Positions 4,903 to 63,195 are shown, counted from the stretch's first letter. The stretch: DNA of 64,000 bases from a virus (IMGVR_UViG_3300042888_001115:11067-75066), one strand, 5' to 3'. A program made the numbers and translations. The notes: a model not told the origin generated them from the sequence alone.

Positions 4903-4915
4903 CAAATATACGAAA
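4903..4915 (-). promoter_or_regulatory. promoter -7-like motif TTTCGTATATTTG
   Basis: Gene-sense TTTCGTATATTTG matches the Bacteroidota -7 consensus TAnnTTTG; member of the recurring motif class. Confidence 0.35.
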
Positions 4916-7012: not shown

Positions 7013-7023
7013 TAAAGATACGA
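7013..7023 (-). promoter_or_regulatory. promoter -7-like motif GTCGTATCTTTAAGTATA
   Basis: Consensus motif about 22 nt upstream of the lipoprotein ATG; TTG about 20 nt further upstream. Confidence 0.4.
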
Positions 7024-7565: not shown

Positions 7566-8075
7566 TCATATTAATCGTTTATCTATATGTGTGTGTCGTA
7601 ATCTTTCTGGTGAATTTACATCAAATATATCTTCATAATATGTTATATCAATTTTTAATATTTTACTAAGTTCTAATAACTTAGTATAATAGTTATTCAC
7701 CATTTCTTGTACTTCCGTATAGTTTGGTGTTGGTTCCCAAATATATTGCATCCCGCCATTTAAATGAGTACGTTCTCTGTTATATCTTAAGTATGCAATA
7801 CTTTCTGCACAAGATTTCAAATCCCTCCTACCTAGTAGCACTACTTTGTCAAACCTGCCGGCTAAGTCAACCCACCATTTCATTTCATCGGTTATCCCGG
7901 TAGGTATATGCCACATTATAATCTTAACTATGGTATTATCATCCTTGTCATTTGGTAAATAATCACTACCATTTTTAGTTGGTTCGGATACCCATTTTAA
8001 ATTATGTTCGGCTGCTAATTTTAGCAGTAAAGAACTAGTACCGGTTCTAGCCATTGCAATTATTACTATTTTCAT
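7566..8075 (-). CDS. sulfotransferase-like P-loop protein
   Basis: N-terminal AMARTGTSSL (5'-PSB-like) and LLGRRDLKSCAES (3'-PB-like R..S). Confidence 0.45.
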   Translation of the reverse strand: MKIVIIAMARTGTSSLLLKLAAEHNLKWVSEPTKNGSDYLPNDKDDNTIVKIIMWHIPTGITDEMKWWVDLAGRFDKVVLLGRRDLKSCAESIAYLRYNRERTHLNGGMQYIWEPTPNYTEVQEMVNNYYTKLLELSKILKIDITYYEDIFDVNSPERLRHTHIDKRLI

Positions 8076-8578
8076 TATATTAAAGATTTTTTAAATGTCA
8101 AATTCTCAACACATAAAAATAAAATTAAAGACCACCGCTCACCTGTTTTTATTTCCATAACTTCATGTTCGGTGTGACTGTTGAAACAATAAATTTCGCC
8201 TCTTTTTTTTGATAATAATTTATGTGGCTCATATAAATAAAAATCGCCCCCGGTGTATTCTTCATTTAGATTAGTGCCAACCGCCCATATTCTGTTTTTA
8301 TTTGTATCAGAATGTCTTGTAAATTTGTCGCCAATATTAAATTTATGCAAACCTATGTGTGTGGGATAATTATTAACAATAACATTTTTATTATCCATAA
8401 TCAATTTACCAATCATTCTATCAAATATCCATTTATAATTTTGAATATTTGGTATTTGCCATCCGGTGTAGTTAACCGCACTATTATTAGGATACCCACC
8501 ATCGGTTTTTATTACCGTCAATACTTTACTTAAATTTATGATATCTAAACATTCTTTTGGTGTAAAATAATTTTCCAT
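8075..8578 (-). CDS. 2OG-Fe(II) oxygenase (prolyl-hydroxylase-like)
   Basis: HxD...H triad candidates FTRHSDTN and NSHTEHEV, then GERWSL (R-x-S). Confidence 0.55.
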   Translation of the reverse strand: MENYFTPKECLDIINLSKVLTVIKTDGGYPNNSAVNYTGWQIPNIQNYKWIFDRMIGKLIMDNKNVIVNNYPTHIGLHKFNIGDKFTRHSDTNKNRIWAVGTNLNEEYTGGDFYLYEPHKLLSKKRGEIYCFNSHTEHEVMEIKTGERWSLILFLCVENLTFKKSLI

Positions 8579-10103: not shown

Positions 10104-11654
10104 TTAAGATTTTGGAGCTACCGGTGGTACACAGTTAGCAAAATTAACACACTTACATGGAGCGGAATTGGCGTAGCAGGGGAAGGTGCTGAACGTTTGT
10201 TTAGTACAGGCCTCACCCTTTGCGCAGTCGGATTGTGAACAAGAAGCTTTCCTCTCGGAACAACTCGCACCAATATTATGTTCAATTGCAACAAATGAGG
10301 TATTGTCCATAGTTTGTGTTAAAAATAAATGTTGTCTTTCTACACTTATTGCCCATCCACTAAATATGGTATTTGTTCTTACAATTGTCGAAACTTCTTT
10401 TAGGACAGTTGTTAATGTTTCATTTTCAGTATTAATTAATATTACAGAATCACCAATTTGTATAGATTCATCTGACCCCAAACTTCCCAATGAAACAAAT
10501 TTAACATTATTATTTCTAACGATTAAATAATTAGAAGAAATTGTATCTTCCCAATAAGTAGTATCAGTAAATACAAGCTTAACATATTCTACAATTACAG
10601 AAACCTTTTCTTTTGCAGTTACCTCATTTGTACTGTATACTGTATTATTTACAAAATCTTCATATGTTATACCAAAATCAGCTGTATCCAATGTTAAATC
10701 AATATTATTTGGATTTGGAATATCAATTGTTTTTAATAAATCACCTACTTGTAAATCCAACGCAGTTTTGAATGAACCATCTGCCATTTCAACCGTATCG
10801 GTATCTAATAATTTAGGTGCTGCGAACAAATATTCATTATTTAAATATCTATTTTTATATGTATTTACTATCTCAAATGTTTCTGCATTATATTCTACAT
10901 CAGTATCTAATACTGCTCCGGTCAACGATGTGTAACCACCTAATGATATACTTTCTAAATTTGGAGGAAATAATAAATTTAATCCTCTAAAAACTTGTAT
11001 TTGATTTTGATATAAATTGTTCAAATCTAAATGAAATTCCATCAAAAAATACTCGTTGTTAACATTTTGTAAAACAATATTTAATTCCTCATTAGTTGAT
11101 ACTTTAAACAACTTAGGGTAAATATTCTTATCATATGCCGCACCAACTGCTTTTAAAATAAAATTTGGATGAATACCATTATCTGGTATTGTAGTTATGT
11201 TGTTTACAATTTCATTTGTTTCGTTAAGATATGCAAATTGAGAACCAAATGATGAATTTTTAATTAAATTCATAAAATTAATTTTATTTGCACAATACGT
11301 ATCATCTACCAATGCGGTAGTATCATATGCACTTCTAATAATCAACGTTGTATCGTTATCTTCAACATAAGGTACTGTTATAGAATTTGGACTAGAAATC
11401 ATATTTTTAAATTCAAATCCTAAAATGGTAGATAATTCAGTTAATTTGTTAGATAGTGGCTCTAAATTTCCGATGTATACTACCTTAGTAAATGTATTAT
11501 TACTAATGAAATTAGATAGTTCTGTTAAATCTAAGGAGGTTTCAGTACCTTCTAATGTAACATATATCCAGCCTAAATTAGTGTTTATTTCAATTGGTTT
11601 TAAATCACCATTTTTATCGTACATAAAGTCCGAACCTATTAATACTGTTCTCAT
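10104..11654 (-). CDS. large protein with Hint-like segment and Cys-rich C-terminal tail
   Basis: 516 aa; TVEMADGSFKTALDLQVGDLL resembles a Hint N-terminal block and VAIEHN precedes the tail; last ~50 aa hold 11 Cys and are encoded by a locally GC-rich stretch (10104-10270). Confidence 0.55.
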   Translation of the reverse strand: MRTVLIGSDFMYDKNGDLKPIEINTNLGWIYVTLEGTETSLDLTELSNFISNNTFTKVVYIGNLEPLSNKLTELSTILGFEFKNMISSPNSITVPYVEDNDTTLIIRSAYDTTALVDDTYCANKINFMNLIKNSSFGSQFAYLNETNEIVNNITTIPDNGIHPNFILKAVGAAYDKNIYPKLFKVSTNEELNIVLQNVNNEYFLMEFHLDLNNLYQNQIQVFRGLNLLFPPNLESISLGGYTSLTGAVLDTDVEYNAETFEIVNTYKNRYLNNEYLFAAPKLLDTDTVEMADGSFKTALDLQVGDLLKTIDIPNPNNIDLTLDTADFGITYEDFVNNTVYSTNEVTAKEKVSVIVEYVKLVFTDTTYWEDTISSNYLIVRNNNVKFVSLGSLGSDESIQIGDSVILINTENETLTTVLKEVSTIVRTNTIFSGWAISVERQHLFLTQTMDNTSFVAIEHNIGASCSERKASCSQSDCAKGEACTKQTFSTFPCYANSAPCKCVNFANCVPPVAPKS

Positions 11655-12822: not shown

Positions 12823-12948
12823 TTATCTTCCTTGTCCTTTGTACGCCTTTGGACGTGGACTGTGTTTGTTATAAGATTTCTTTGCCGAACCGGATTTACG
12901 AGAACCAAATGAAACCTTTGATGATGTTAATGAACCTTTCTTTGCCAT
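12823..12948 (-). CDS. small highly basic protein (41 aa, MAKKGSLTSSKVSFGSRKSGSAKKSYNKHSPRPKAYKGQGR)
   Basis: ATG ORF not in the track; its stop abuts the ATG of the downstream gene. Confidence 0.35.
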   Translation of the reverse strand: MAKKGSLTSSKVSFGSRKSGSAKKSYNKHSPRPKAYKGQGR

Positions 12949-13236: not shown

Positions 13237-13293
13237 TTTTATTTTATTTTTGTTAATTGAATTATTGTTTACTTACTAAATCAAATTTTTAAT

Positions 13294-13671
13294 CTATACT
13301 AATTTTTTCTCTCTACTTTTCCAATACATCGGTCCATAATGATGCGCAATCTCCTCACCTTCTTCTATATCTTTAATTGAATAAAATTCCATTATATTTA
13401 ATTCTTTCGATTTTATCCTCCAATCACAATTTGGGTGTGAACTATGATTATAAATTGAACCGTACCCAAAAGGTAAGTATGAAGTATCATTATCGTTAAC
13501 GTCGGTGAATACATAATCATACGATGGGTGGGTTGCTACCACAAATAATTTTATAAAATAGCATGTTTCTATAATTGTTCCGTTTGGTATAAATTCGCCG
13601 GCAAACACACCAAATCCCATTACTTCATCAATATAACGTACCTCTAATTTTGTTTGTGGTTTTATAACCAT
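13294..13671 (-). CDS. SET-domain protein lysine methyltransferase (minimal viral-type SET)
   Basis: GFGVFA (GxG), IYNHSSHPNC (NHSCxPN), EEIAHHYG (ELxFDY-like); 125 aa, like the minimal viral and bacterial SETs. Confidence 0.8.
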   Translation of the reverse strand: MVIKPQTKLEVRYIDEVMGFGVFAGEFIPNGTIIETCYFIKLFVVATHPSYDYVFTDVNDNDTSYLPFGYGSIYNHSSHPNCDWRIKSKELNIMEFYSIKDIEEGEEIAHHYGPMYWKSREKKLV

Positions 13672-13940
13672 TTTATTTTATTAATGATTGTATTAAATTC
13701 TTGTCTTTCTATCTTATCTGCGTTATACATTTCAAATTCATCCTTATCCTTATCGTTTCTTAAACAAATGATATGATATTCATTATTCATATCCGATTTG
13801 TATATTACATCTTTAACATATCCAAATTCAGCATCATCCATTGAAGCTCTAAACCTCATTACGAATATTGGTTTAGGTTTATGGACGATATTTGGATTCA
13901 CACTCATTGGTGGCGGGATTGGTATTGAATTTCCGAACAT
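13662..13940 (-). CDS. hypothetical protein
   Basis: 92-aa ORF overlapping the SET gene start. Confidence 0.45.
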   Translation of the reverse strand: MFGNSIPIPPPMSVNPNIVHKPKPIFVMRFRASMDDAEFGYVKDVIYKSDMNNEYHIICLRNDKDKDEFEMYNADKIERQEFNTIINKIKWL

Positions 13941-13946
13941 AGGATT

Positions 13947-13971
13947 GAGAGAGGGGGTTGGGGGGTGAGAG
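13947..13971 (+). repeat. G-rich island GAGAGAGGGGGTTGGGGGGTGAGAG (copy of the GGGGGTTG element, opposite orientation)
   Basis: Runs of 5-6 G in an otherwise AT-rich region; followed by GTCGTTTTTAAAC as in the copies at 24386 and 26557. Confidence 0.4.
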
Positions 13972-14012
13972 TAGTCGTTTTTAAACTTTTTAGTAAATCT
14001 TTTTTGTATATA

Positions 14013-14231
14013 TTAACTTATTGTACATTCAGTTCCATTCCATTGAATTCTATCCGCATCACACGCTATATGCCACTTCTCTACACCATCTACTAATTCT
14101 TTTGTGGTATAAGTAGGTATACTCAATTTAACGAAGGTGGCGAGGTTCTCCTTTCCATCTATAAGTACTCTCCAATGTAAATCACTACCTTCACTTACTT
14201 TTGTGTTATATCTAATTCTTACTTTATACAT
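14013..14231 (-). CDS. hypothetical protein
   Basis: 72-aa ORF. Confidence 0.4.
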   Translation of the reverse strand: MYKVRIRYNTKVSEGSDLHWRVLIDGKENLATFVKLSIPTYTTKELVDGVEKWHIACDADRIQWNGTECTIS

Positions 14232-14233
14232 TC

Positions 14234-15247
14234 TTATTTCTTTAGGTCTTTAATCTTTCCTTTACGCACTTTTGTTTTATCTAACTTAACTACCTCTTTG
14301 GTTTTATTATCAATTTGCCATTTACCCATTACCTTTTCGGTTACCTTTTGGTTTGGTTTCTTTGCATATGGTGCAAAAATTGCTTTACCATCAAATCCAC
14401 CATCATTAGATACCTCACCACTTTCCATATCTACTACATCATTAGCAAACTTAACGGGTTGGTGTTTCTCTTTTACTTCTTCATTATATCTCGCTACCGC
14501 TTTGATTAACTTTTCTTTGATTGGATTTTCGATATTGAATTCTATATTTGCTACATCGGCGTTTAAGATACCTAATTGCTCATCGATGTTATCCATTTTT
14601 AAATCAATATCTACCATTCGGTCTTTGATAAGTGTAATGGAATCGTTGATACTATTAAGGATTGTATTCGATTCGTATTCATAAGATTTAATATTATCAT
14701 CCCAATCAAATCCATAGTGAGTACCTTCGTTACCATTTTGACCAATGATATCCATTCTTCGTTCCGCTTCCCTTTCCATTTCGTCTTCGGCATACTTTCT
14801 CATTTCCTCCACAGCATCTATATTACTTTCATTTTCTTCTATTGGTGTTTCGTTTTCCCAATCTTTAAATTGACCTTTGTAATCTTCTTCTATCATTTCA
14901 TCATCTTCATCACCAAATTCTTTAAATGGAGCTTTGTCTTTACTATCTTCGGTCCAACTACCATATGAATGTCGTAGGTCCTTATATTCATTTTCATCAT
15001 CGTTTTTCCATTCGTTTAACTTTTCTTTTAAGTCTTCTCTTTCATAGTCGTGAATATCGGCGGAAAGTTGTTTGATTACATCATTCCAAGAACTCATTTC
15101 AAAGCCGGAAGCAATGGTGAGACCTTTAAAAACCTCCATTAATTCACTTAAATCAAAATCGGAGTGGTCTAATTCAATAGTTACTTGCTTACCATACATA
15201 GAAGCGGTAAACTTAGCGGGTGGGTTGGGTGTGTTAGAATATATCAT
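14234..15247 (-). CDS. acidic coiled-coil protein (scaffold or internal-protein-like)
   Basis: 337 aa, long D/E-rich tracts. Confidence 0.5.
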   Translation of the reverse strand: MIYSNTPNPPAKFTASMYGKQVTIELDHSDFDLSELMEVFKGLTIASGFEMSSWNDVIKQLSADIHDYEREDLKEKLNEWKNDDENEYKDLRHSYGSWTEDSKDKAPFKEFGDEDDEMIEEDYKGQFKDWENETPIEENESNIDAVEEMRKYAEDEMEREAERRMDIIGQNGNEGTHYGFDWDDNIKSYEYESNTILNSINDSITLIKDRMVDIDLKMDNIDEQLGILNADVANIEFNIENPIKEKLIKAVARYNEEVKEKHQPVKFANDVVDMESGEVSNDGGFDGKAIFAPYAKKPNQKVTEKVMGKWQIDNKTKEVVKLDKTKVRKGKIKDLKK

Positions 15248-15309
15248 TATAGTATTTTTATGTTACTATAAAGATAGTGAAAAGAAATGGAATAAAAAAA
15301 TAAAATACT

Positions 15310-16506
15310 CTAAAACTTTAAGTGTTCTCGTAAGTGTGTATCGAATATAAGATGATTACAATACTCTCTATTCTCATTAGCAATACCCATAGCAACCTCA
15401 ATACGTTCTTTCCACTCACTATCCTTCATATCCCTTATCCACTCTATATTATGGATTAAAGCGGGAATCCAACTACTATCGTATTGTTCAATGGGTTTTG
15501 AAATATTCCAATTAGAGTATATATCCCATAACTCATCCGTATATAGAGAACGATAGGGAGTAAGCCCATTCATTTCCATTAACTTATGTGCAAGGGGGTC
15601 TGTATGTATAAAGGGTTTACCTAAGTATAATAGTTTAGTAGTTTTCTCATTGAACTTAATAAGGTGTAAGTAAGGAGATATAATTGTAAACGTTTCATAC
15701 ACTACTTCCATTTGTGAGTGTATAGTATGTTCTATAAACTGATGTGTATAAGAATCCTTATGTATTCCATTGTTTTGACCTGAATTGGATAAGTAAGGAT
15801 TAAAATATGGAGAAGTGTAGTTTAATAACGGCAAGTGTACTTTATTATGTGTAGGTATAGTATTCGTTGTAAACTTTAATTCTACCTTATCATTTTGGAG
15901 AAAGTGTTTTGCTAACGATATCCTTACTCTATCCGTCAACTTATTAATATGTAGACCTACTCTATGCCCTTTAGGATGCTCTTTAAATACCTCACTTCCA
16001 TAGAAAAACATCTCACCGGGAAAGACCTCATTGTTATAATAGCTTTGTAATGCTACCTTATTAGAAAACTTAAAGTTAGTGTAGTTAATGAAAGGTATAT
16101 CCCATACTATCTTAACTCCTTTCATTTTCTCTATTCGTAGTAGTAACTCATCCGATTCTCTTACCTCATTGTGTATAAAGTAATCTTCGGTATGTTTTGC
16201 TATAATAATTAGGACCTTTGTACCCTCATCTAAACCCTCTAACCTATCTAATAGAGCGAGATAATCACTTTCCATTAGACCATGTTTGGTTATCAATAAA
16301 ACATTAATCCATCCGGCTTTAAATGGAGTAGAAAGGATTTCTTGTGGATTAGTAAACTCCCAATGGAAATTATACTCATCTAATTTAAAATTACGGGTAG
16401 TATGGTTAGAGGACCAGAGACGGGATATATTTTTTATCTCATCCTTTGTCCAAAAATAGGGTTCTATTGATTGCCAATCCGCAATGAAGTTTACATTTAT
16501 ATCCAT
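15310..16506 (-). CDS. large paralogous family A protein (possible glycosyltransferase)
   Basis: Shares C-terminal block LGKPFIHTDP...GL.PY with 16497, 37343, 52877 and 53967. Confidence 0.45.
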   Translation of the reverse strand: MDINVNFIADWQSIEPYFWTKDEIKNISRLWSSNHTTRNFKLDEYNFHWEFTNPQEILSTPFKAGWINVLLITKHGLMESDYLALLDRLEGLDEGTKVLIIIAKHTEDYFIHNEVRESDELLLRIEKMKGVKIVWDIPFINYTNFKFSNKVALQSYYNNEVFPGEMFFYGSEVFKEHPKGHRVGLHINKLTDRVRISLAKHFLQNDKVELKFTTNTIPTHNKVHLPLLNYTSPYFNPYLSNSGQNNGIHKDSYTHQFIEHTIHSQMEVVYETFTIISPYLHLIKFNEKTTKLLYLGKPFIHTDPLAHKLMEMNGLTPYRSLYTDELWDIYSNWNISKPIEQYDSSWIPALIHNIEWIRDMKDSEWKERIEVAMGIANENREYCNHLIFDTHLREHLKF

Positions 16507-17873
16507 CCTAATTCTTTTATCCTACCAAATATTGAGGTGTTATAATATACATCTTCGAAGTGTTTAATATTTTCTTTAGCGATAAGGTTTGCCTCATTTA
16601 TCAAATCGTTATATTCCATTTCATCCATATCTAACAATTGTTGGATTCTCTCAAACAATAAATCTAACCACATTGTGTTACCTACCTCTATGTAAGTATC
16701 TTTATTGAAATAATTAGCATTATACATTTGTAATAACTCCGGTCCTAATAAGCAATCATATTGTTTAAACCCATACTCTTTTACTAAATGATACATAACA
16801 GGATCAGTATTAATAAAAGGTTTACCTAATAAAATATTCTTTAATATTTTTTCAGTAGGTTTTCTATGTGCTTTTGATGGTTCTTTGGTATTAGTTTCAT
16901 ATACTATATCGATATCTGAATTGATAAATAGTTTAGCTAACCCTAAGAAATAATTTGGTGGGTGATACCCATGCTCTGCGTTTTTGTTTGGATTGTACCT
17001 TAGTGTACTACTTCGTTCTATAAAGTAAGAATCATGCTCCATATACTTTTCTAATGGATAATTAGTTTCACTTAATAATCTATTATGATGTACGAACTGA
17101 TGTTTATAGTTAATAGTTAAAAACATTTTAGGATGTGATATATAATCCGTAGTAACAAATCGTTTAACCAGTCTATACCTTTCACCGATACCATTACCGA
17201 TTGTACCCATATGAAACCCAATTCGTTTATCTTTTTTTAATCTACTGAATACATCTTTGTTATAATAGAAATTAGTAATGCCATCCCCACTCAATTCTTT
17301 TTGTAAATTAATATAATCGTAGAAATATATTTTGGGTTCAAACACTGCGGTCTCTGTATTAATCAATGGTGCGTTATGTATAACCTTTATATTATTACAT
17401 TTAGAAATTTTATCAAACATTATATCCTCAATCGCACCTCTAATACTAAATATGCTTTGTTCTAAATTACCACCAATGATTATAATCTTTACATCCGTAT
17501 TGATATATTTGTTTACTATATCACATAACGGTTGGTAATCCTCAGCGAACATTCCTATCTTTATAATATGAATTATGTCACTACACAAATCCGTATCAGG
17601 TATAGTTGTACCTACAACGTGCTCAATGGTATATCCATTCCAGTCACATTTTTGTTCCATAAAATTTTTGGTAAGGTCTTTGATTTCATCCAATTCTGCG
17701 TATGTGAAAAGTAACCCATTATCCTGCCGTTGATAGAAATTTATTTTCTTCATTATAACATATTTAGTTTGTGTACTACACATATAAGTATATGATTTTC
17801 CTAGAGTGGAAATTTTAACCTCACAATATTTGTGTACCAGGTTCACATATAAAAAAAAATTAATTTGTCGCAT
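16497..17873 (-). CDS. large paralogous family A protein (possible glycosyltransferase)
   Basis: C-terminal LGKPFINTDPVMYHLVKEYGFKQY block, 458 aa. Confidence 0.45.
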   Translation of the reverse strand: MRQINFFLYVNLVHKYCEVKISTLGKSYTYMCSTQTKYVIMKKINFYQRQDNGLLFTYAELDEIKDLTKNFMEQKCDWNGYTIEHVVGTTIPDTDLCSDIIHIIKIGMFAEDYQPLCDIVNKYINTDVKIIIIGGNLEQSIFSIRGAIEDIMFDKISKCNNIKVIHNAPLINTETAVFEPKIYFYDYINLQKELSGDGITNFYYNKDVFSRLKKDKRIGFHMGTIGNGIGERYRLVKRFVTTDYISHPKMFLTINYKHQFVHHNRLLSETNYPLEKYMEHDSYFIERSSTLRYNPNKNAEHGYHPPNYFLGLAKLFINSDIDIVYETNTKEPSKAHRKPTEKILKNILLGKPFINTDPVMYHLVKEYGFKQYDCLLGPELLQMYNANYFNKDTYIEVGNTMWLDLLFERIQQLLDMDEMEYNDLINEANLIAKENIKHFEDVYYNTSIFGRIKELGWI

Positions 17874-17890
17874 TACAAGAAATGGAGAAG

Positions 17891-17901
17891 TCGTATTTTT
17901 G
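17891..17901 (+). promoter_or_regulatory. plus-strand copy of the promoter motif (TCGTATTTTTG)
   Basis: GTCGTATTTTTGA on the plus strand, an exact TAnnTTTG; would drive antisense transcription toward the histone-like gene. Confidence 0.2.
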
Positions 17902-17936
17902 ATATCACATTTTGTGACATCAAAATTTTGGGCATG

Positions 17937-17964
17937 AAAAAACCGGATAGATTTCTCTACCCGG
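17937..17964 (-). terminator. intrinsic terminator
   Basis: Gene-sense CCGGGTAGAGAAATCTATCCGG hairpin then TTTTTT, 35 nt after the histone-like stop. Confidence 0.5.
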
Positions 17965-17998
17965 CCCTTACACTATGAAAAACTAACCAATAAAATTT

Positions 17999-18412
17999 CT
18001 ATTCAAACTCACTCGCTAACTCCTTAGATACAGCTCTGCTTTTCTTAGCCGTACTTATAGCGTGTTCATTCATTCTTAATAGTATCTCTTGTCCTATGTA
18101 CCTATTAGCTAAGTTCTCGTTTACAAATCTCTTTAGTGTTCTACTCTTATATACTACACTATATACGTCTTGCATTAAGTTCTCGCTATACTCTGATACT
18201 ATCTTATATAACTTCTCGTACTTTTGCTTTATTGTCTCTCTCTTTGTCAGCTTCTTAGCTATTATCTTTTTAGCTACCGCCTTTGTTTGTTTCTTAGCTA
18301 CTACCTTACGTGCCGCTGCTACCTTCTTAGCTATTAACTTAGGGCTTACTACCTTCTTAGCTCCTTTCTTAGTTACTACTTTCTTTGCTTTCATTGTTAC
18401 TTTCTTACTCAT
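17999..18412 (-). CDS. Lys/Ala-rich histone H1-like DNA-binding protein
   Basis: First ~57 aa are KAKKVVTKKGAKKVV...AKKIIAKKLTK repeats like an H1 tail or bacterial Hc1/Hc2 tail; C-terminal alpha-helical domain. Confidence 0.55.
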   Translation of the reverse strand: MSKKVTMKAKKVVTKKGAKKVVSPKLIAKKVAAARKVVAKKQTKAVAKKIIAKKLTKRETIKQKYEKLYKIVSEYSENLMQDVYSVVYKSRTLKRFVNENLANRYIGQEILLRMNEHAISTAKKSRAVSKELASEFE

Positions 18413-26496: not shown

Positions 26497-26509
26497 TAAA
26501 GATACGAAA
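26497..26509 (-). promoter_or_regulatory. promoter -7-like motif TTTCGTATCTTTAAGTATAAAC
   Basis: 12 nt upstream of the trimmed ATG. Confidence 0.4.
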
Positions 26510-30127: not shown

Positions 30128-30140
30128 TAAAGATACGAAA
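30128..30140 (-). promoter_or_regulatory. promoter -7-like motif TTTTCGTATCTTTAAGTATATG
   Basis: Immediately upstream of the ATG. Confidence 0.4.
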
Positions 30141-32286: not shown

Positions 32287-32297
32287 TAAAGATACGA
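32287..32297 (-). promoter_or_regulatory. promoter -7-like motif TTATCGTATCTTTATATAAA
   Basis: 20 nt upstream of the SPFH ATG. Confidence 0.4.
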
Positions 32298-43344: not shown

Positions 43345-43355
43345 TAAAGATACGA
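43345..43355 (-). promoter_or_regulatory. promoter -7-like motif GTCGTATCTTTATGTATTG
   Basis: Inside copy A, about 28 nt upstream of the first ATG. Confidence 0.4.
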
Positions 43356-45273: not shown

Positions 45274-45674
45274 ATTTTATAAATTTTAATTTTTGTTAAT
45301 TTAGTTTGTTTATCGTTTGCTCCAATTAATATATCAATTCGTTTCTTATATCGTTTGTTCATTACATCGTGAACTCTATATGTACCATCATATTTACCGG
45401 CACCAACAATTCTAATCTTTTGTCCAAACTTATATTTCTTTTTTAAATCTCTACTAACTGCAATAATTCTATGTTTCTTTGGATTAGTAATCTTAAATCC
45501 ACTCGCAGTTATATTTGGTGTACTATCCGTTTCGGCTGCATTTGCTTTATATGTGGTTAGTGTCACTATTTCGGGAGTAATCGTTTCAATCATTGTGTTG
45601 ATTCTTAATTCCTCTCGTTCCATTTCGTAAGGTAAACATACCATTGCGATTGCTAGTATTATATTGTAATTCAT
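45270..45674 (-). CDS. 3D-domain (MltA-like) cell-wall-binding/lytic protein with signal peptide
   Basis: N-terminal hydrophobic leader; HRIIAVSRDLKKKYKFGQKIRIVGAGKYDGTYRVHDVMNKRYKKRIDIL matches the 3D-domain pattern with conserved Asp positions. Confidence 0.55.
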   Translation of the reverse strand: MNYNIILAIAMVCLPYEMEREELRINTMIETITPEIVTLTTYKANAAETDSTPNITASGFKITNPKKHRIIAVSRDLKKKYKFGQKIRIVGAGKYDGTYRVHDVMNKRYKKRIDILIGANDKQTKLTKIKIYKI

Positions 45675-58300: not shown

Positions 58301-58312
58301 AAATATACGAAA
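58301..58312 (-). promoter_or_regulatory. promoter -7-like motif TTTCGTATATTTAATA
   Basis: About 25 nt upstream of ATG 58277. Confidence 0.4.
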
Positions 58313-60322: not shown

Positions 60323-60335
60323 TAAAGATACGAAA
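60323..60335 (-). promoter_or_regulatory. promoter -7-like motif TTTCGTATCTTTATGATAT
   Basis: About 50 nt upstream of the cobS-like ATG. Confidence 0.4.
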
Positions 60336-63185: not shown

Positions 63186-63195
63186 AAAGATACGA
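63185..63195 (-). promoter_or_regulatory. promoter -7-like motif TTATCGTATCTTTATG
   Basis: Consensus motif. Confidence 0.4.

Follow-up and report, generated by a model that had tools for sequence, protein, structure and literature searches.

A mobile minimal SET-domain gene and a core gene for a Lys-rich protein are inherited independently in a freshwater jumbo phage group

A 64,000-nucleotide (nt) stretch of viral DNA (IMGVR_UViG_3300042888_001115:11067-75066), hereafter the window, encodes a minimal SET-domain protein and a Lys-rich protein, which the first-pass annotation had suggested to be a chromatin-like pair made of a lysine methyltransferase and its histone-H1-like substrate. Both open reading frames (ORFs), like all other sizeable ORFs in the window, are on the minus strand, and the two genes lie 4.3 kb apart with five genes between them. 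The occurrence of a SET gene in a phage raises the question of what a lysine methyltransferase targets in a histone-free bacterial host. The features of the two genes are as follows.

13294..13671, minus strand: 125-amino-acid (aa) minimal SET-domain protein, vSET-like, probable S-adenosylmethionine (SAM)-dependent protein-lysine methyltransferase (Pfam, PDB match, motifs)
13251..13679, minus strand: single-gene SET cassette of 429 nt (DNA alignment of the window with the related locus L007; tblastn synteny tables)
17999..18412, minus strand: phage core gene whose 137-aa bipartite product joins a polycationic tail to a conserved helical domain (ORF list, family members)
18242..18412, minus strand: Lys/Ala/Val-rich tail, residues 1-57, net charge +22 (composition, family alignment)
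18002..18241, minus strand: conserved all-helical C-terminal domain of about 80 aa, a new family (alignments, dN/dS)

The window is part of a freshwater jumbo phage whose genome measures about 240 kb. Its phage identity follows from strong PHROG matches, among them a T4-type ATP DNA ligase (phrog_114, E=3e-75), and from its closest relatives in phage collections, which are uncultured huge phages (LR7565xx), Caulobacter phage Cr30 and Microcystis phage Mel-JY01. The freshwater origin and the size follow from these relatives, from freshwater metagenome contigs carrying genes identical to those of the window, and from the finding of members of the Lys-rich protein family on contigs of 224-243 kb, P0153 on one of 224 kb and P0174 on one of 243 kb.

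The SET protein matched the Pfam model PF00856 over the whole profile (positions 1-105 of 105) with E=9e-14 and 52.2 bits, for a gathering cut-off of 22.4 bits. Its best match among solved structures was vSET of Paramecium bursaria chlorella virus 1 (PBCV-1; 1n3j, E=6.2e-12), followed by Set7 of S. pombe. In an alignment with 11 database homologues and vSET, the GxG SAM-binding motif corresponds to G19-F20-G21, with an invariant G21; the (Y/R)xNHSxxPN motif, which in SET domains contributes to the pseudoknot and the SAM pocket, corresponds to Y74-N75-H76-S77-S-H-P80-N81, with invariant N75 and H76; and the C-terminal ELxF/Y-type motif corresponds to E106-E107-I-A-H-H-Y112-G...Y116-W, in which the nearly invariant Y112 is aligned with the catalytic Tyr105 of vSET. 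These motifs are invariant or nearly so in homologues down to 31% identity. Thus, the first-pass annotation was right in placing at 13294-13671 a SET protein with all its signature blocks and a likeness to the chlorovirus enzyme, and the hidden Markov model (HMM) search that it had suggested for the SET domain came out positive.

The protein consists of the SET core only, and its homologues measure 122-142 aa. Pfam reported no domain beyond this core, the sole other row being the sub-threshold PR/SET-type model PRDM2_PR (13.9 bits for a cut-off of 27). A knot-like beta fold can be inferred from the full-length alignment to vSET. The protein also matches phrog_28741 (E=5e-5) and is 37% identical to a protein of the 735-kb uncultured phage LR756501. 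The reading frame is intact, with a 10-nt overlap between its start codon and the upstream gene's stop codon, an arrangement consistent with translational coupling. The ratio of nonsynonymous to synonymous substitution rates (dN/dS) is 0.69 relative to the closest allele, from which it differs by few substitutions, and 0.36 relative to a 54%-identical homologue. The SET gene is real, motif-complete and vSET-like, and the protein is very probably an active SAM-dependent protein-lysine methyltransferase, transferring a methyl group to the epsilon-amino group of lysine.

Knowledge of minimal SET enzymes comes mainly from eukaryotic chromatin and from a single algal virus. The enzyme of the latter, vSET (A612L; 1n3j, 2g46, 3kma), resembles the window protein in being viral, about 120 aa long and devoid of pre-SET and post-SET regions, and in its GxG, NHSxxPN and EEIxxxYGxxYW motifs, which align. 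It differs in that the identity is about 31% and in that its virus infects a eukaryotic alga, whereas the present gene is carried by a bacteriophage. As vSET methylates the host histone H3K27 and a bacterial host presumably has no H3, the substrate of the phage enzyme must be different. Prokaryotic precedents are cpnSET of Chlamydia pneumoniae, which acts on Hc1/Hc2, and Go1-SET of Methanosarcina mazei, which acts on MC1-alpha, both of them methylating small basic DNA-binding proteins of their own cell (PMC3980110). These two systems served as the template for the idea of a pair; in contrast to them, the genes studied here are known from sequence only, the two are not co-inherited, and the Lys-rich protein shares no homology with Hc1, Hc2 or MC1. 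Phage SET ORFs have already been annotated without function. For instance, ORF62 of Stenotrophomonas phage vB_SmaM_Ps15 is listed as a SET-domain protein of unassigned function (PMC9025141), and our literature search turned up no work on the function of any phage SET enzyme. The window gene, like ORF62, PHROG 28741 and the gene of the huge phage LR756501, is phage-encoded, and it adds a further viral minimal SET, from a distinct freshwater jumbo-phage lineage in which it behaves as a mobile cassette.

The mobility of the SET gene was apparent from the comparison of the window with related contigs, which mostly covered 10 kb on either side of the locus. Aligned with L007, the window shows the SET cassette as a clean 429-nt indel flanked on either side by DNA that is about 99% identical. 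At its borders the cassette has a short direct repeat rich in A (AAAATAAAAT...ATGG), which forms the leader before the start codons of both SET and the adjacent gene g81. SET is missing from L007-L010 and L020, although these loci share 98-100% identity with the window in the flanking genes g92 and g81. Altogether, SET is absent and the Lys-rich gene and its neighbours are kept in most of the syntenic loci, namely L007-L010, L020, L011-L013, L023-L025, L027-L030, L032 and L113; in L011-L013 the slot between g92 and g81 is filled with an unrelated 146-aa gene. Conversely, L115 carries in this slot a SET gene of 87% identity, amid neighbours that have diverged (g92, 64%; g81, 84%). The synonymous divergence (dS) separating the window from L115 is 0.09 for SET and 0.63-0.69 for the Lys-rich gene, and this contrast indicates that the SET cassette was recently exchanged and has a history unlike that of its neighbours. 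More divergent SET genes (38-54% identity) occur elsewhere, between g130 and g516 in L037 and beyond g516 in L021 and L026, and in L014 SET follows two genes for 2-oxoglutarate (2OG)-Fe(II) oxygenases and precedes a radical-SAM gene. SET thus occupies at least four different positions among related phages, and many relatives have none within 10 kb. SET is an accessory, mobile single-gene cassette in this phage group, and these natural SET-positive and SET-negative variants with near-identical flanks offer a ready comparison for finding the SET target.

The Lys-rich gene behaves as a core gene of the same freshwater jumbo phage group. It is syntenic in at least 17 distinct loci, with K-domain identities from 100% down to 59%, within a conserved block ordered g96, Lys-rich gene, g458, g398, g337, g92, g81, g41, g271, g130 and g516, to which SET does not belong. 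The 137-aa ORF with a Lys-rich N-terminus of about 57 residues was found where the first-pass annotation had put it, and it lies on the minus strand. Among the residues of the tail, 37% are K, 18% are A and 16% are V, and there is a single Pro. The tail is Val-rich and placed at the N-terminus, and its likeness to the Lys/Ala/Pro tail of H1-type proteins is one of composition only. No second ORF of this Lys/Ala-rich kind was found in the window, where the basic-residue filter retained just one further 30-residue stretch (45411-45500), which is not rich in Lys and Ala.

Searches for histone-like relatives were negative. The Pfam model HC2 (PF07382) reached 16 bits for a cut-off of 40 (E=0.013) in a match confined to the low-complexity tail; neither Hc1 (PF07432) nor linker histone (PF00538) gave a Pfam match at E<=1; the NCBIfam model NF038053 (Burkholderia histone H1-like) scored 17.9 bits for a cut-off of 80; and nothing rose above threshold in PHROG, Pfam, NCBIfam or PDB. 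All the linker-histone and Hc1 models thus remained below their cut-offs, an outcome named beforehand as speaking against the histone-like assignment. The label of histone H1-like protein stands for the basic composition and falls for homology, and the tail is, from its sequence, best described as an analogue of H1/Hc1-type tails and not a homologue. A partial parallel is DdbA of Streptomyces, which joins an H1-like domain to a DksA-like domain (PMC3643593). Both proteins combine a low-complexity polycationic segment with a separately conserved domain; they differ in being unrelated in sequence, the C-terminal domain of the phage protein forming a new family that matches nothing in Pfam or PDB.

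This C-terminal domain is the conserved part of the Lys-rich protein. Its core reads ...Y-S-E-N-L-M-Q-D-V-Y-S-V-V-Y-R-x-K-T-L-K-R-F-V-N-E-N-L-A..., and its dN/dS of 0.10-0.19 reveals strong purifying selection. The tail keeps its character and not its sequence. Indels of its repeats vary its length, and the related proteins range from 125 to 189 aa. A 33-nt imperfect tandem repeat in the tail-coding DNA (18291-18362; 2.3 copies, 80% matches) probably underlies this frequent length polymorphism. Distant members of 183-214 aa (P0140, P0141, P0146, P0153 and P0174; loci L027, L028, L030 and L113) possess an extra N-terminal domain of about 80-100 aa (..NGI.H.H.KQIAEFV....T.KQF.K.DF..), without Pfam match, ahead of the Lys-rich segment, which is therefore a linker or a tail and not the defining feature of the family. 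The family has more than 400 members in a database of 5.8 billion proteins, all of them unnamed and metagenomic or viral, and HMMER, run exhaustively over 1.84 billion representatives, retrieved only 14 clusters at 50% identity. Two AlphaFold2 models, computed from the full-length alignment and from a diverse alignment of the C-terminal domain, contain helices only and are of low confidence (predicted local distance difference test scores of 68 and 64; predicted template modelling score of about 0.27), and a Foldseek comparison of the models with PDB returned no meaningful match. The tail most likely binds DNA or RNA electrostatically, and the helical domain probably serves in oligomerisation or partner binding. 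The Lys-rich protein, a putative nucleic-acid binder, defines a core family, both strongly conserved and uncharacterised, in freshwater jumbo phages that are abundant.

The SET and Lys-rich genes are inherited independently. The Lys-rich gene is retained at 77-91% identity in relatives lacking SET, some of which have near-identical flanks. Furthermore, no covariation was seen between the variants of the tail and the presence or absence of SET. The tail type 'VSPKLIAKK' occurs in the window, where SET occupies the slot, and in L021, where the slot is empty; the type 'PKKKVVAKK' occurs in L007, which has no SET, and in L115, which has one. We also considered the tail motif 'AAARKV' as a mimic of 'AARKS', the H3K27 site of vSET, and rejected it on finding that it is missing from the SET-positive L115 and present in the empty-slot L021 and in P0072 of L011. 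Since SET is missing from near-identical relatives, varies in position, has a lower dS than the Lys-rich gene, does not co-vary with the tail, is parted from the Lys-rich gene by a terminator (described below) and has no enrichment of Lys-rich ORFs near it across viral SET lineages (see the next paragraph), the chromatin-like enzyme-substrate pair put forward by the first-pass annotation receives no comparative support: neither co-inheritance nor conserved linkage was found. The linkage is not obligatory, and an optional modification of the Lys-rich protein is compatible with these data.

Minimal SET enzymes are common in phage metagenomes, in addition to being mobile single-gene cassettes in this phage group. 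At least 149 viral relatives were confirmed in IMG/VR, from which 80 SET loci were kept and dereplicated to 48 SET lineages at 80% identity. The K-domain lies within 10 kb of SET in a single one of the 80 loci (L037), and no contig is common to the IMG/VR SET set and the 13 K-domain contigs. Lys-rich ORFs in general are not enriched near SET across the 48 lineages (5/206 within 1 kb, as compared with 20/717 from 3 kb outwards; p=0.69 in a Fisher test). What is enriched within 2 kb of SET are genes resembling 2OG-Fe(II) oxygenases (26/337, as compared with 5/717 at 3 kb or more; odds ratio 11.9, p=2e-9). They occur in 11 of the 48 lineages, at a spacing of 0-22 nt in seven of them (L014, L021, L026, L034, L035, L043 and L060); these 11 lineages are related phages, so that the counts are not independent, and oxygenase paralogues fill accessory islands. 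The window has one such gene.

8075..8578, minus strand: 2OG-Fe(II) oxygenase (PF13640), about 4.7 kb from SET (Pfam)

Other SET genes were seen in diverse surroundings. An anecdotal exception to the missing enrichment of Lys-rich ORFs is the unrelated viral lineage L040-L044, in which a Lys/Met/Gly repeat protein of 70-73 aa adjoins SET ('AKTAKKKMMGGGM'; MKGKAKTAKKKMMRGGGM...; 8027-8248 in L041, 9752-9964 in L044). In L041 it is 73 aa long and ends 0 nt before the SET start, and it sits among small very basic proteins, about 2 kb upstream of the large terminase. Two JGI metagenome contigs of 28 and 102 kb (L016 and L017) are a bacterial fragment with elongation factor P, a tRNA synthetase, triosephosphate isomerase and phosphoglycerate kinase, in which three small SET paralogues stand within about 6 kb, beside a GNAT acetyltransferase and an aminoglycoside-resistance-like gene. 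Another distant SET homologue sits in an integrative element.

From these lines of evidence we propose, with a probability of about 0.6, that the window carries two functionally independent genes, namely an optional host-directed SET cassette and a core gene for a protein with a polycationic tail. The SET protein would have an optional host-interaction ('moron'-type) function, because it is dispensable among near-identical strains and moves between positions and backgrounds. By analogy with the characterised prokaryotic or viral minimal SET enzymes, its target would most likely be a small basic nucleic-acid-binding protein of the host, rather than an obligatory partner from the phage core. As for the Lys-rich protein, its length-variable tail would bind nucleic acid and its helical domain would oligomerise or bind a partner. 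Several points weigh against this proposal. The host-directed role of SET is argued from dispensability and analogy only, and dispensability is also compatible with an optional modification of the sole H1-like polycation of the window. The dN/dS of SET (0.36-0.69) is above that of the core gene and compatible with relaxed constraint. The SET-less calls cover 10 kb on either side for most contigs, and a SET gene may be located farther off. Finally, both AlphaFold2 models of the Lys-rich protein are of low confidence.

The explanation closest to the first-pass annotation, that SET methylates the Lys-rich tail of its own phage and thereby tunes a chromatin-like compaction of phage or host DNA, draws on the precedent of the enzyme and substrate classes (cpnSET and Hc1; Go1-SET and MC1-alpha; PMC3980110), on the uniqueness of this polycation in the window, and on the location of both genes on the same strand of the same accessory or early-looking region. 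In addition, about five lineages of the phage group have a SET gene at one place or another in the 10 kb downstream of the Lys-rich gene, and in an unrelated viral lineage the 73-aa Lys-rich repeat protein directly abuts SET. We nevertheless consider it improbable, given the persistence of the Lys-rich gene in SET-less relatives (77-91% identity), the different evolutionary histories (dS of 0.09 for SET and 0.63 for the Lys-rich gene), the tail types that are independent of SET with an 'AARK' motif absent from the SET-positive L115, the lack of association of SET with Lys-rich ORFs across the 48 lineages (p=0.69), the five genes and the terminator that intervene, and the absence of H1, Hc1 or Hc2 homology. 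Highly improbable, too, is an extended version in which SET would be a mobile writer acting on the tail of a DNA-coating phage protein so as to regulate the compaction or accessibility of DNA, the 2OG oxygenases found beside its relatives being able to hydroxylate or demethylate the mark.

These oxygenases suggest another explanation, according to which SET would be part of a protein-modification island acting, together with tandem 2OG-Fe(II) oxygenases and sometimes a radical-SAM protein and a g516-like protein, on one shared substrate, a protein or a peptide, for instance by lysine methylation combined with hydroxylation or oxidative demethylation. The enrichment and the often minimal spacing (0-22 nt) reported above speak for it, as do the gene order of L014 (2OG, 2OG, SET, radical SAM), the g516-like genes near SET in 14 loci, and the presence in the window of both the PF13640 oxygenase (8075-8578) and g516 (10104-11654). 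What makes this explanation unlikely overall is that the 11 lineages are related and their counts are not independent, that 2OG paralogues crowd the accessory islands of large aquatic phages, so that adjacency may reflect a shared location, and that the window SET is not beside an oxygenase, being displaced by about 4.7 kb. A joint role of SET and 2OG oxygenases, doubtful as it may be, is a better-supported and more concrete lead than a pairing of SET with the Lys-rich protein. Finally, SET might be a decaying or non-catalytic passenger without current function, as the polymorphism of its presence and the dN/dS of 0.69 relative to the closest allele could suggest, a value derived from few substitutions. 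Against such a passenger stand the intact frame, the (nearly) invariant SAM-binding and catalytic motifs down to 31% identity, the dN/dS of 0.36 relative to the 54%-identical homologue, the maintenance of SET in many viral lineages, and the 10-nt start/stop overlap that fits translational coupling, all of which make it very improbable.

Besides the two genes, the intergenic region following the Lys-rich gene contains several signals, listed here together with the other copies of a promoter-like motif.

17937..17964, minus strand: intrinsic-terminator-like hairpin with a 9-bp stem, a GAAA loop and T6 (sequence, RNA fold, hairpin scan)
17900..17922, no strand assigned: palindrome TGATGTCACAAAATGTGATATCA, nearly perfect (located after the terminator and before the next gene)
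17891..17900, plus strand: sole opposite-strand copy of the promoter-like motif TCGTATNTTT (reads TCGTATTTTT)
4904-4913, 7014-7023, 26498-26507, 30129-30138, 32288-32297, 43346-43355, 58301-58310, 60324-60333 and 63186-63195, minus strand: copies of TCGTAT(C/A)TTT (motif scan)

The terminator (CCGGGTAGA-GAAA-TCTATCCGG followed by T6) stands directly past the stop codon of the Lys-rich gene, is unique in the window and parts the transcription units of the Lys-rich and SET genes. The generic pattern scan overlooked it, and it was detected by direct folding and a custom hairpin scan; the intergenic RNA folds with z=-4.5, in agreement with the strong terminator that the first-pass annotation had noticed next to this gene. 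The palindrome might serve as an operator or form another hairpin. The window contains 10 copies of the motif TCGTATNTTT for an expectation of 1.6, nine of them on the coding strand, intergenic and upstream of genes, including those for the ligase and the CobS-like protein, and the motif is probably a phage promoter element. It corresponds to TCGTAT(C/A)TTT, is often lengthened to TTTCGTATCTTTAAGTAT, and its core TAtcTTTa resembles the -7 box of Bacteroidota; the Bacteroidota -7-like motif TAnnTTTG itself was not enriched upstream of the window genes. No copy of TCGTAT(C/A)TTT immediately precedes SET or the Lys-rich gene. The antisense promoter proposed earlier does coincide with a copy of this motif on the plus strand; as chance alone predicts about 0.8 copy per strand, we assign no function to this single copy.

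A second, independent small accessory cassette lies near the SET slot.

14013..14231, minus strand: g72, missing from SET-less relatives and from the SET-positive L115

It is inserted directly after the stop codon of g337. One further viral lineage (L085, L089, L090, L106 and L110) has weak homologues (31-36% identity) at a distance of some 2 kb from SET. Its absence from L007 along with SET, and its occurrence near SET elsewhere, made g72 a candidate SET partner, which we rejected on the grounds that L115 has SET without g72 and that the other cases amount to one lineage.

More generally, the window has about 30% G+C and 124 co-directional, closely packed genes. They also encode a CobS-like AAA+ protein, a CobT-like protein, UvdE, a GIY-YIG/SegE-like protein, a T5orf172 protein, an SPFH protein, an NAD-dependent epimerase, the 2OG-Fe(II) oxygenase mentioned above, and two proteins with strong PHROG matches of unknown function. 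A megablast of the 10-22 kb region against 50,697 phage records gave no match, and a tRNA scan of the window found no genes. A Shine-Dalgarno-like core is present within 20 nt upstream of only 11 of the 124 predicted genes, which suggests a host with little Shine-Dalgarno use.

Among the neighbours of the Lys-rich gene, g458, g398, g337, g92, g72, g81 and g516 gave nothing above threshold in the family searches (PHROG, NCBIfam, Pfam and PDB). The 398- and 458-aa genes just downstream of the Lys-rich gene (15310-16506 and 16497-17873, minus strand) are apparent paralogues sharing motifs such as LGKPFI.TDP, and their matches in distant relatives overlap, as if they were a single gene. The g516 protein (10104-11654, minus strand; 516 aa) has a Cys-rich C-terminus, and its gene is near SET in 14 loci, including those of distant phages (23-30% identity). 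Lastly, g41 (12823-12948, minus strand) encodes a very basic peptide of 41 aa (MAKKGSLTSSKVSFGSRKSGSAKKSYNKHSPRPKAYKGQGR) with no family match, which is called as a gene in metagenome annotations and is conserved at 83-100% identity in the closer relatives and 60-90% in the distant ones.

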